From IMG/VR virus record IMGVR_UViG_2698536657_000011: a stretch of DNA of 6,325 bases; one strand, written 5' to 3'. Under the pieces are notes generated by a model, which was not told the origin of the DNA, made no database searches, and was given only the letters and a program-made list of their open reading frames with translations. A program made the translations under genes and the position numbers. This document shows, one piece after another, positions 2,866-6,032 of the stretch. How positions within the stretch are numbered: the stretch's first letter is position 1; each line of letters starts with the position of its first letter. This DNA is from a virus. Its lineage: Duplodnaviria; Heunggongvirae; Uroviricota; Caudoviricetes.

Positions 2866-3204
2866 ATGACACAGAGACGCAGCTTCCGCACTGGCACAGA
2901 ACGCCACGCAGCCCGTTTCTCAACCAGCGCATCACGCAGCAACTCGCACTACAGCCTGCAGGAAACGCACGCCACACCTGACGGGCATCTGGTTAAACAA
3001 ACCGGTAAACACACCTGGCTGATTAATGATGCCGGAATTGTCATACACAGAGGCGCACGCAACCCGATTACCGGAAATACCTGTTACTCCCTGACTCGCG
3101 GAGATGAGCAGTTCGGGCAGGATTTCACCCTACACGAAGCATTAAGAACGGCAGACCGGTTAATCAGCGGTCGCAGTTTTCAGCACCCGGAACATCGCCG
3201 CTGA
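2866..3204 (+). CDS. Hypothetical early-region protein, 112 aa
   Basis: Intact ORF, weak Shine-Dalgarno. Composition returns to the GC-richer background. First gene of a run of co-oriented, closely spaced ORFs. Confidence 0.55.
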   Translation: MTQRRSFRTGTERHAARFSTSASRSNSHYSLQETHATPDGHLVKQTGKHTWLINDAGIVIHRGARNPITGNTCYSLTRGDEQFGQDFTLHEALRTADRLISGRSFQHPEHRR

Positions 3205-3223: not shown

Positions 3224-3466
3224 ATGATCGAAGCCTACAAAATACTTATTAATAATGCGTTGCAGCGTTATCACTTCGAACTCGCAAACCGGGGTGTAAC
3301 CCGGGACGAAGGACTTCGTAACTCACTGCGGGGCGCAATTATGGGACTGTATAACTGCGCACTGGGCAGCGATGACCGCGAAGCACTGGAAGAATTAAAA
3401 GTTATTGTGGCCGAACTGTTTGAAGGTGAAATCGTTGAGCCTTATTTCACAGAGGTGGCAGCATGA
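3224..3466 (+). CDS. Hypothetical early-region protein, 80 aa
   Basis: AAGGA Shine-Dalgarno 7 nt upstream. Stop TGA overlaps the start of the next ORF (ATGA at 3463-3466). Confidence 0.6.
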   Translation: MIEAYKILINNALQRYHFELANRGVTRDEGLRNSLRGAIMGLYNCALGSDDREALEELKVIVAELFEGEIVEPYFTEVAA

Positions 3467-3588
3467 GCGTATTTCTTTCATGGGTGATTCTGATTATTTC
3501 CGTGCTTATGGCGATTGGCATTATGCGAATTATCGAAGCGCTGAAAAATATCGAATCTTTATTTACTGGCGAAGAACGCCGTAAATAA
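3463..3588 (+). CDS. Small single-pass membrane peptide, 41 aa (MSVFLSWVILIISVLMAIGIMRIIEALKNIESLFTGEERRK), not in the supplied ORF track
   Basis: Hand translation. GAGGTGG Shine-Dalgarno 5 nt upstream; ATG overlaps the preceding stop. About 20 hydrophobic residues followed by a charged tail, typical of a small transmembrane peptide. Confidence 0.45.
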   Translation: MSVFLSWVILIISVLMAIGIMRIIEALKNIESLFTGEERRK

Positions 3589-3667
3589 ATAACCAACCGG
3601 ACAGAAAACATTAAAACCATCCGCATCTGCGGAGGGCTTCACTCAATCCAGAAACGGAGAAACAGCT

Positions 3668-3946
3668 ATGAGCATCAATACACCTACAGAAATAAACAAA
3701 CTATTTACCGACCCGGCGCATATTGAATTTACGCAAAAAACGCTGACTGAAATAACCAATGTACTGGATGAAAGAATATCAGAAATAGATAAAGACAAGC
3801 ATTTTGCCACCTACATGGCCCTGCAAATGCAAAGCATGGCAATGGTGACAGCAAAACAGACCATCAGTGAACTCTATATGAAAAACCTGCGCCTCGAGCG
3901 CGAACTGGCAGAACTCCGGACACAGTCCGGCCAGTTTTCAGCGTGA
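3668..3946 (+). CDS. Hypothetical early-region protein, 92 aa
   Basis: GGAGA Shine-Dalgarno 7 nt upstream of the ATG. C-terminal part is helical-looking (LRLERELAELRTQ). Confidence 0.6.
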   Translation: MSINTPTEINKLFTDPAHIEFTQKTLTEITNVLDERISEIDKDKHFATYMALQMQSMAMVTAKQTISELYMKNLRLERELAELRTQSGQFSA

Positions 3947-4997: not shown

Positions 4998-5114
4998 GAA
5001 ACCAGAACATGCACACACAAAAAAACCGCTTGCCATGCCGCAATCAGTCAGGTTACATTCCCGCTGCACCTCATAAAACGGGTGCCGGGATTTCCACCCC
5101 GCCGACTACAAGAG

Positions 5115-5145
5115 CGCACAACCGCGCCAGCGGTTTTTTTGTGCG
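5115..5145 (+). terminator. Putative Rho-independent terminator or attenuator: stem AACCGC/GCGGTT (5120-5125 / 5130-5135), loop GCCA, then a 7-T run (5134-5140); outer arms CGCACA/TGTGCG (5115-5120 / 5140-5145)
   Basis: Read directly. Lies about 120 nt downstream of the stop at 4997 and about 170 nt upstream of the next start. The GC stem is short, so strength is uncertain. Confidence 0.4.
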
Positions 5146-5261
5146 TACTGTATCGCCACGTCTTTTTCGCGTCAGAATAATGGCGGGGCGTACGGGGCCG
5201 ACTTCGGTCGGGCCGGGATCTCTTGTAGCCGGTTGTGGAAACCCTGTACGTCTCGCCACCC

Positions 5262-5292
5262 TGAGTTTTCCACCTCCGGATGGTGAGTTTTC
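5262..5292. repeat. Perfect 9-bp direct repeat TGAGTTTTC (5262-5270 and 5284-5292), spaced 22 bp, flanking a small palindrome CACC-TCCGGAT-GGTG
   Basis: Read directly. Two-helical-turn spacing immediately upstream of the gene at 5320 suggests a paired protein-binding site. Confidence 0.45.
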
Positions 5293-5319
5293 AGAACTTA
5301 CTACAAGAGGCCAAACACC

Positions 5320-5547
5320 ATGGCAAACCGCAAACAACAGCGCGCCCGCGCTGAGCGTCTTCACACCCGGACTGAAATCAACCGCAGACTCTGGCGCGCA
5401 TCACGCGTCGCGCAAATCATGTACGTCAACATGCTGCATGAACACGCACACGCGCTGTCAGACCGTTACTGTGCCGCCGTCTTCAGCTACCTGGCGGATG
5501 ACCTGGCAGAACTGCAGGACCTTATCAACCAGCAACACCACCACTAA
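5320..5547 (+). CDS. Hypothetical basic protein, 75 aa, with C-terminal QQHHH
   Basis: AGAGG 9 nt upstream of the ATG. Preferred over the overlapping 206-aa track ORF (5009-5629), whose translation is Ser/Thr/Arg/Pro/Cys-rich and looks like an off-frame read of GC-rich DNA. Confidence 0.5.
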   Translation: MANRKQQRARAERLHTRTEINRRLWRASRVAQIMYVNMLHEHAHALSDRYCAAVFSYLADDLAELQDLINQQHHH

Positions 5548-5615
5548 ACAACATCCTGAAGCTATCCCGCACCCGTGCGCGGGAGGCTTCCGCACGTCTG
5601 TTACCGGAGGTTCTC

Positions 5616-6032
5616 ATGAAGAGCGTTAAGGGACTTTCAGATATTCAGGATTTTTTTAACTGGATGTGGGCAGTGGATCCCCGGCTGGCTTCCCGCCTGA
5701 ACGACTGGCACGACTATTACCGCCGCGCCTGTAAACGGGCCGCCAGACGCGTCACCACATACGGGGATTTCTCCTTCACCGTTGACGACCGTTACCGCGT
5801 GGACGTGAAAGGTGATGGTGATGGTTTTGGTTTATTTCACATCAACGGAACCGACAGCACCGCCATCAGCTGGTCGTCGTCAGAGATGACGCTTGTTCTG
5901 GAAATGACAACGCACAGCGTGGCCGTGAAAGGCATATACACCGCAGAAGACTTTATCGGTGAATATCAGCGCCTTCTCGTGCTGTACCGCGCGGCGTTTC
6001 AGGCGGCGACTGCCGGGGAGTGCGACGCATGA
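5616..6032 (+). CDS. Hypothetical protein, 138 aa
   Basis: Strong GGAGG Shine-Dalgarno 5 nt upstream. Stop overlaps the next start (ATGA at 6029-6032). Contains a GDGDGFG segment; no family recognised. Confidence 0.6.
   Translation: MKSVKGLSDIQDFFNWMWAVDPRLASRLNDWHDYYRRACKRAARRVTTYGDFSFTVDDRYRVDVKGDGDGFGLFHINGTDSTAISWSSSEMTLVLEMTTHSVAVKGIYTAEDFIGEYQRLLVLYRAAFQAATAGECDA

Follow-up and report, generated by a model that had tools for sequence, protein, structure and literature searches.

A conserved small membrane protein gene overlapping the end of a DUF4754 gene in a P88-like prophage of Escherichia coli

The stretch of DNA analyzed here, 6,325 nucleotides of IMG/VR virus record IMGVR_UViG_2698536657_000011 and called the window throughout, carries a 41-codon open reading frame (ORF) whose start overlaps the stop of a gene for a DUF4754 protein. 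Comparison with relatives makes us highly confident that the ORF encodes a real, translated membrane protein, and it is probable that this protein is made early in the lytic cycle by translation coupled to that of DUF4754. The best overall explanation we can offer of the peptide, and it is a tentative one, is that it binds and modulates a protein of the host inner membrane. Judged by sequence identity and gene order, the window is part of a P88-like E. coli prophage (genus Xuanwuvirus, Peduoviridae; P2 family). The gene is one that is already catalogued, in a family that is uncharacterized. The features that carry the argument are as follows, with lengths in amino acids (aa).

3463..3588, plus strand: gene for the 41-aa small membrane protein, equal to RefSeq WP_000110304.1 and a homologue of phage P88 gp07
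3224..3466, plus strand: DUF4754 gene, 80 aa, predicted acidic three-helix bundle (Pfam PF15946, E = 1.3e-15)
3452..3458, plus strand: Shine-Dalgarno-like GAGGTGG, whose GAGG ends 7 nt before the peptide ATG
3463..3466, plus strand: ATGA start/stop overlap of the DUF4754 gene and the peptide gene, invariant in 86/86 loci and also in loci L087 and L088
3469..3525, plus strand: predicted transmembrane (TM) helix, codons 3-21 (VFLSWVILIISVLMAIGIM), from Kyte-Doolittle hydropathy, the Hessa scale and AlphaFold2 (AF2)
3526..3564, plus strand: predicted amphipathic continuation of the helix, codons 22-34 (RIIEALKNIESLF), presumably cytoplasmic, from the hydrophobic moment (muH) and AF2

Translation of 3463-3588 on the plus strand gives MSVFLSWVILIISVLMAIGIMRIIEALKNIESLFTGEERRK, exactly the product reported in the original prediction, which had been made from the letters of the window alone. 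The GAGGTGG that was then named as the ORF's own Shine-Dalgarno sequence is present at 3452-3458, and relatives have weaker purine-rich forms (GGGG, GGGA, GGAG) at this site. An ATG overlapping the upstream stop had also been described, and it is seen as the ATGA at 3463-3466, where the ATG (3463-3465) overlaps the TGA (3464-3466) of the 80-aa ORF at 3224-3466. The invariance of this overlap across loci supports the further claim that translation of the peptide is coupled to that of the upstream gene. A programmed -1 frameshift that would fuse DUF4754 to the peptide was considered and rejected: the junction is without a slippery heptamer, and the sequence preceding the ATGA varies between alleles. 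With 70 ORFs of 30 aa or more in the window, one of 41 codons is in itself not beyond chance, and because its length is unremarkable its status as a gene rests on comparison with relatives.

For this comparison we used 88 related loci: 80 from viral contigs, six from annotated records and two from genomes that represent species. All 88 have the ORF intact, and it always starts at the ATGA that ends a DUF4754 gene of 79-81 aa; eight plasmid-labelled records have the same DUF4754-peptide pairing. Variable sites are distributed over codon positions 1, 2 and 3 as 20, 12 and 31 (chi-square p = 0.013; 34 distinct sequences, first 37 codons). The mean pairwise ratio of non-synonymous to synonymous change (dN/dS) is 0.22 (0.20 for the TM segment, 0.23 for the tail). 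Between the window and P88, differences occur at 13 of 25.3 synonymous and 17 of 85.7 non-synonymous sites (dN/dS 0.27, Fisher p = 0.004), and four of the five alternative frames have a ratio above 1. The original prediction had asked for conservation of the ORF, rather than of the nucleotides alone, in related prophages; a dN/dS of 0.22 and a frame that is the only one open in all 35 distinct sequences provide it. Amino acid identity between the window and P88 is 68% for the peptide and 39% for DUF4754.

Other reading frames over the same letters were examined as candidates and set aside. An antisense ORF of 59 aa at 3447-3626 (minus strand) contains stops in 20 of the 35 distinct sequences, P88 included, and its dN/dS of 0.29 looks low because its third positions coincide with those of the peptide frame. 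A 59-aa ORF at 3405-3584 on the plus strand and the remaining frames have stops in nearly all relatives.

The predicted product has a simple architecture. Strong hydrophobicity marks residues 3-21 (Kyte-Doolittle mean 2.74, Hessa sum -3.3 kcal/mol), and tail residues 22-35 are amphipathic (muH 0.56-0.62) with a net positive charge, in agreement with the earlier description of one TM helix followed by an amphipathic charged tail. The AF2 model is one continuous helix from residue 2 to 34. Its predicted local distance difference test score (pLDDT) exceeds 90 in residues 1-30; a break follows at T35-G36, and the end of the chain is poorly defined. Because only two residues precede the TM segment and both a basic n-region and a cleavage motif are absent, the segment is best read as a membrane anchor and not as a signal peptide. 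R22 and K28, which follow the helix, would under the positive-inside rule place the N-terminus outside and the C-terminus inside.

Conservation along the peptide is uneven. Among 41 distinct peptides M1, S6, W7, L10, A17 and I24 are invariant, and F4, I11, G19-I23, K28, I30 and E31 are nearly so; the small or polar TM residues S6, S13, A17 and G19 are conserved. The variable TM positions (5, 8, 9, 15 and 16) recur with a helical periodicity near 105 degrees, a weak signal (permutation p = 0.06) that weakly suggests a single lipid-facing stripe, with the rest of the helix surface constrained. It can be said that the helix is too constrained for a mere hydrophobic plug.

Length variants tell a similar story about where constraint lies. 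The original prediction had named frame-disrupting changes in homologous regions as the observation that would overturn it. The claim largely withstands this: most of the disruptions in relatives touch only residues after 30; rare alleles that are frameshifted or shortened at the N-terminus also exist. The 37-aa form of P88 has TAA at codon 38, and the codons that follow still align to CGC CGT AAA TAA; a P88-type allele with AAA at codon 38 instead gives a 41-aa form ending in GEKQSK. The Chuche allele has TAG at codon 31, and the 45-aa PhiR44_2 type derives from a -1 frameshift in the T-run of codons 33-34. Alleles with disrupted N-termini (P0015, P0029, P0030, P0147 and P0149) occur in tens of contigs, against thousands for intact forms. 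Because the disrupting variants are mostly confined to the C-terminus, selection acts on residues 1 to about 33.

The sole relative seen that lacks the peptide gene next to DUF4754 is phage 503458 (NC_049341.1; locus L089, 125-337), in which DUF4754 is C-terminally truncated to 70 aa. This Xuanwuvirus record may be a defective prophage, and it is with that caveat that it suggests the peptide to be dispensable.

The genomic setting is that of an early operon. E. coli JNEC-KY174 (NZ_AP045170.1) contains the window with 100% identity, the prophage there adjoining dmsA, and the phages closest to the window are P88-like Peduoviridae of the genus Xuanwuvirus. The gene order of the window starts with an integrase and a C-type repressor, both on the minus strand, and a long Cox-family protein on the plus strand (1624-2148). 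After cox come an insert rich in A and T that holds two convergent genes (2155-2758), DUF4761 (2866-3204), DUF4754 (3224-3466) and the 41-aa ORF; the peptide gene is followed by a 92-aa gene, several small genes, a MarR-like winged helix-turn-helix gene, a 'derepression protein' and, just beyond the window, the gpA replication endonuclease. This order bears out the location given in the original prediction, since the peptide gene lies between cox and gene A in a same-strand block of a P2-family prophage. Transcription would start from a C-repressed early promoter, on the model of P2 and 186. No sigma-70-like promoter was found on the plus strand directly upstream of either the DUF4754 gene or the peptide gene.

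One claim of the original prediction did not hold. It had called the peptide unannotated, when PGAP/RefSeq has the exact ORF as WP_000110304.1 ('hypothetical protein'); the word fits only the ORF list supplied with the sequence. Relatives are named as well: P88 gp07 is a 'membrane protein', the vB_EcoM-569R5 copy a 'putative membrane protein', and the same 90% cluster in UniRef is called 'Prophage membrane protein'. The P88 genome paper and the P2-diversity papers make no mention of the peptide gene.

The family is narrow in its hosts and frequent within them. An exhaustive profile search of 1.84 billion representative proteins returned 14 clusters at E <= 0.001, all of which are the peptide's own family. 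A profile scan of 185,579 species-representative genomes found two carriers, E. albertii and a mislabelled 'Vagococcus' contig, and because only these two match, the family is all but restricted to Escherichia and its near relatives. From source names, Shigella flexneri and Salmonella enterica can be added, and a Citrobacter rodentium phage has the peptide as well. Of 5426 complete E. coli genomes, 1363 carry the P88-type segment of DUF4754 plus peptide, and the window-type allele occurs in 23 E. coli genomes. As to the 'Vagococcus' carrier (L087; NZ_JBQPOM010000071.1, 'Vagococcus sp. WN89Y'), the contig is 226 kb long, its P88-type module is identical to E. coli copies and its 7-kb locus has a GC content of 49%; very probably the contig is a contaminant from an enterobacterium, or the assembly carries the wrong label.

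DUF4754 accompanies the peptide with great regularity. Its gene stands directly upstream in every locus, plasmid copy and phage genome examined that has the peptide. By profile search, DUF4754 is confined to the same lineage. The protein is acidic (net charge about -6, counted from the sequence), and its AF2 model is a three-helix bundle with an extended C-terminal tail (pLDDT 89.8); the tail carries a conserved (I/V)(E/K/D/Q/T)PY motif with the consensus IEPY. A Foldseek search with this model against PDB and BFVD gave nothing at E <= 0.001.

The two genes nevertheless exchange partners. Window-type peptides pair with DUF4754 of clade A or B and the 'GDKRRK' type with clade A or C, and the DUF4754 clades paired with these recombining peptide types are only 25-43% identical. 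A recombination breakpoint lies at the DUF4754/peptide junction, window 3458-3466. At this junction two observations may be recorded: in one locus (L008) a 100% identical peptide stands beside a DUF4754 43% identical to the window's, and in four E. coli genomes (H9-H12) an identity of 97-99% to the window starts only at 3458. The adjacency of the two genes and the ATGA are invariant, yet allele-specific co-evolution is not evident from these comparisons.

We propose the following mechanism for the peptide, and whatever its function may be, it is one that we infer. The early lytic transcript, running from cox to gene A and repressed by C in lysogens, would yield the peptide, and termination-reinitiation at the ATGA would lead to DUF4754 and the peptide being produced together. 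After infection or induction the peptide would insert in the inner membrane as a bitopic protein, with its two N-terminal residues outside, residues 3-21 across the membrane and the mildly basic amphipathic tail in the cytoplasm. There it would bind an inner-membrane protein through S6, W7, L10, S13, A17 and G19 of the TM helix together with R22, I23, I24, K28, I30 and E31 of the tail. As a small protein it would modulate or inhibit this partner, the likeliest target being cell division or envelope growth, and it may be the functional counterpart of 186 fil, which has an equivalent place in its early operon; P88-like phages lack both fil and dhr. Temperate coliphages commonly carry division inhibitors in the early operon, and there are known cases of small TM peptides binding to divisome proteins. 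That the peptide is a binder or modulator of some membrane protein is quite possible, at somewhat less than an even chance. That it is specifically a division or envelope inhibitor, which would follow by positional analogy with 186 fil, is our best single guess but still rather unlikely. A broader proposal, that DUF4754 and the 37-41-aa peptide form a two-part, membrane-targeted host-takeover or exclusion module of P88-like phages that was unrecognized before, we consider unlikely.

Several results weigh against the proposal of a membrane-protein modulator. The peptide has no match to Pfam, NCBIfam or PADLOC models, and its single PHROG match, to a family of unknown function, is marginal (E = 0.045). 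Superinfection exclusion, division inhibition and toxicity, the three roles suggested in the original prediction, are conjectural, and the peptide has no homology to a characterized example of any of them. A search with the peptide-family profile for a solved relative found nothing meaningful, and no literature was found on the peptide (searched by sequence strings) or on DUF4754. The argument from a conserved helix face is statistically weak, the family being shallow. C-terminal variants of 30, 37 and 45 aa that differ only after residue 30 are in circulation, and therefore the distal tail is not needed; residues 35-41 are, on this comparison, dispensable or variable. Recombination at the junction shuffles alleles and clades, which argues against a tightly co-evolving interface between the peptide and DUF4754. 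The reverse-strand gene at 2564-2758 interrupts the early block in the window. Finally, the analogy with 186 Fil in division is positional only, because Fil is non-homologous and without a clear TM helix.

An alternative that we regard as improbable is superinfection exclusion, in which an inner-membrane peptide blocks incoming phage DNA; it would do so in the lytic cycle, or else in lysogens if its gene is expressed there leakily or independently. Phage exclusion factors are often small membrane proteins, and T4 Imm acts during the lytic cycle. The predicted single-pass inner-membrane architecture and the retention of the gene by prophages in about one complete E. coli genome out of four would both suit such a role. 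The gene lies, however, in the C-repressed early operon, with no promoter-like site upstream, and the peptide has neither a PADLOC match nor homology to the Imm, Sie and Cor families. P2 is known to have defence hotspots at gpA-gpQ and int-att (PMC13586616), and the gene is in neither. A known defence system was rejected as a separate candidate, the peptide and DUF4754 both being without a PADLOC match and the region not being a P2 defence hotspot.

Another account, that of a membrane tether, makes the DUF4754 bundle the effector and has the peptide anchor it through the basic amphipathic tail. The invariant ATGA coupling and strict adjacency are characteristic of subunits produced at a constant ratio, DUF4754 is acidic where the tail is net positive, and the conserved IEPY motif sits on an extended C-terminal tail of DUF4754. 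These points are countered by the free recombination of peptide types with DUF4754 clades of 25-43% identity and by the peptide being more conserved than DUF4754, its supposed effector. We find this account, too, distinctly unlikely.

It is very unlikely that the peptide is a pore-forming or depolarizing toxic peptide, like a type I toxin, a holin or an abortive-infection protein, which would oligomerize and dissipate the membrane potential. Size and hydrophobicity fit toxins of the Hok, TisB or Ibs type, the TM helix has conserved small or polar residues (S6, S13, A17 and G19), and two promoter-like hexamer pairs lie on the minus strand inside the ORF. Such hexamer matches are at chance level, however (4 found and 4.8 expected), no terminator was found on the minus strand downstream of them, and the peptide region has no Rfam match. 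The antisense ORF is broken in 20 of the 35 distinct sequences, no antisense RNA family was found, and the gene lies outside the lysis cassette. A type I toxin in particular is unlikely because the gene has no transcription unit of its own, being translated by coupling within an operon, the antisense promoter-like matches are at chance level and no RNA family matches. That the ORF is non-functional, persisting by chance or translated only because translation is needed, for example against polarity on downstream genes, is hardly credible: it is very short, its C-terminal length varies (30, 37, 41 and 45 aa) and N-terminally disrupted alleles are found, rarely, in databases, but dN/dS is 0.22, substitutions are conservative (I/V/L/M), some residues do not change even between alleles with differences at 51% of synonymous sites, and the ORF, intact in 88/88 loci, is better conserved than the flanking DUF4754 gene.

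Returning to the membrane-protein modulator, its consequences can be stated with its limits. The gene itself is no discovery, being in RefSeq and in the P88 annotation, and as matters stand it is a widespread, ordinary small phage membrane protein; no long-standing open question is affected by it. If the two-part module were real, it might for example be a new class of TM-peptide inhibitor directed at the divisome or another essential inner-membrane machine, and about a quarter of E. coli genomes would carry it in a silent state until prophage induction turned it on. If the peptide inhibits a specific inner-membrane machine (the divisome, a transporter or FtsH), it would be a compact phage-derived probe or inhibitor, and a true inhibitor role would assign a role to two domains of unknown function.

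Beyond the peptide gene lies one further feature of the early block.

3620..3633, no strand assigned: conserved stem-loop or palindrome TCCGC ATCT GCGGA with a 5-bp stem, 32 nt 3' of the peptide stop, with an A-run before it at 3609-3619

The stem is 100% paired in 20 distinct sequences, which were chosen by a pattern that partly presupposes it, and two of its five pairs show compensatory double changes (CCGT/ACGG and CTGC/GCAG). The stem-loop marks the end of the first early gene block. On the plus strand the stem followed by GGGCTTC resembles the putative P2 terminator after gene B (CGCAC-TTAAT-GTGCG-GGGCTTCTTTTT), but it is without the T-run; read on the minus strand, the element is a hairpin followed by a T-run and is terminator-like.

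In a sister lineage whose peptide ends in '...FFTGDKRRK' (L010-L019 and L092), a second hydrophobic ORF (31-34 aa; MKNVKAIHTIATVWVIFQVSALIWLALKIWE and variants) takes the place of the hairpin about 13 nt after the peptide stop, for example around 2901-2996 in L092. This ORF stays open despite several substitutions, has no obvious Shine-Dalgarno sequence and is left unannotated by RefSeq in strain G1/2 (gap 2888-3101). With this ORF following the peptide, the sister lineage would have a tandem of two small membrane peptides.

Three other parts of the window drew attention. The segment at 2155-2860 is AT-rich, with a GC fraction of 0.38-0.42 against about 0.5-0.55 in its flanks, and holds two convergent genes, one of 131 aa (plus strand, 2155-2550) and one of 64-75 aa (minus strand, 2564-2758/2791), with no Pfam, PHROG or PADLOC match. 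It is missing in P88, and 569R5 and strain G1/2 carry other cargo at that place, between cox and DUF4761; the segment looks like a variable moron slot within the early region. Farther along, Rfam matches on the plus strand to isrK (5066-5140; 63.9 bits, E = 2.4e-12) and to the C4 antisense RNA (5176-5263; 78.6 bits, E = 1e-14) lie directly upstream of the 'derepression protein' gene (5320-5547). They point to an immunity or antirepressor control like the c4-ant system of P1 and P7, and a 206-aa ORF at 5009-5629 that spans both matches is probably spurious. The 92-aa protein encoded at 3668-3946 on the plus strand has weak PADLOC matches to the candidate defence models PDC-M64B (E = 4.6e-4) and PDC-M64C (E = 2.5e-3); its gene is 3' of the hairpin in the window, and its P88 counterpart precedes DUF4754.

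We compared the peptide with known systems of similar size or setting. Type I toxins (Hok, Ldr, TisB, Ibs and ShoB) are likewise small, hydrophobic, single-helix inner-membrane peptides and often reside on mobile elements. Each of these is transcribed from a promoter of its own, has a structured leader and is paired with an antisense RNA, whereas the window peptide is ATGA-coupled within an operon, its start overlapping the upstream stop in all loci, and shows no independent transcription unit. Holins belong to the late lysis cluster, and the peptide gene is early, between cox and gene A. Exclusion proteins such as T4 Imm, P22 SieA and HK97 gp15 are inner-membrane proteins of phages too, T4 Imm being the product of an early gene; they are larger, often have several TM helices and have no homology to the peptide. 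Those of temperate phages are normally expressed by the prophage, unlike a gene in the repressed early operon.

Nearer in architecture are the small bitopic regulators AcrZ, MgrB, MgtS and Blr of E. coli, SidA and DidA of Caulobacter, and SPO1 gp56, which bind larger membrane proteins; their targets include an efflux pump, a sensor kinase and divisome proteins. They share with the peptide a length of 30-50 aa, one TM helix and a short cytoplasmic tail, but the exhaustive profile search detected no homology to any of them. Homology to E. coli Blr was considered and rejected: a pairwise BLASTP match of 27% identity over 26 hydrophobic residues was treated as compositional and is absent from the profile search.

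Nearer in position are the early genes of phage 186, where fil ('overexpression blocks cell division') and dhr lie between cII and the terminator tR1. Fil, a division inhibitor, and Dhr, an inhibitor of host replication, are non-essential and, like the peptide, small products of overlapping genes in the first block of the early operon, upstream of a stem-loop or terminator. The peptide gene, between cox and gpA and on the same strand, occupies the early-operon position of phage division inhibitors. Fil (75 aa) and Dhr (66 aa) differ from it in having no sequence similarity and no clear TM helix (highest Kyte-Doolittle values 1.26 and 0.49). No small TM ORF was found in the early operons of P2 and 186 and no fil or dhr equivalent in P88, and the peptide has no family match to the characterized division inhibitors 186 Fil, lambda Kil and SPO1 gp56.

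The closest known relative is P88 gp07 (YP_009113050.1, 37 aa), a full-length homologue with 63-68% identity to the window peptide. Against gp07 and its relatives, the tblastn matches cover all 41 residues at 63-66% identity (E = 2e-9 to 6e-9); identity over the shared 37 residues is 68%. Copies are found in the Xuanwuvirus phages and prophages 569R5, PhiR44_2, Chuche, Shae_phiSM and 520873. The two differ in that the window allele, at 41 aa, has four extra residues (ERRK) and in that the 92-aa gene comes before DUF4754 in P88 and after the peptide in the window. Like the window peptide, gp07 follows DUF4754 directly with an ATGA and has the same TM helix and an RII..K.IE..F tail. On these shared features, namely similarity, the location at the DUF4754 ATGA, and an N-terminal TM helix with an R-I-I-x3-K-x-I-E tail, the window peptide belongs to an as yet unnamed P88 gp07-like family.

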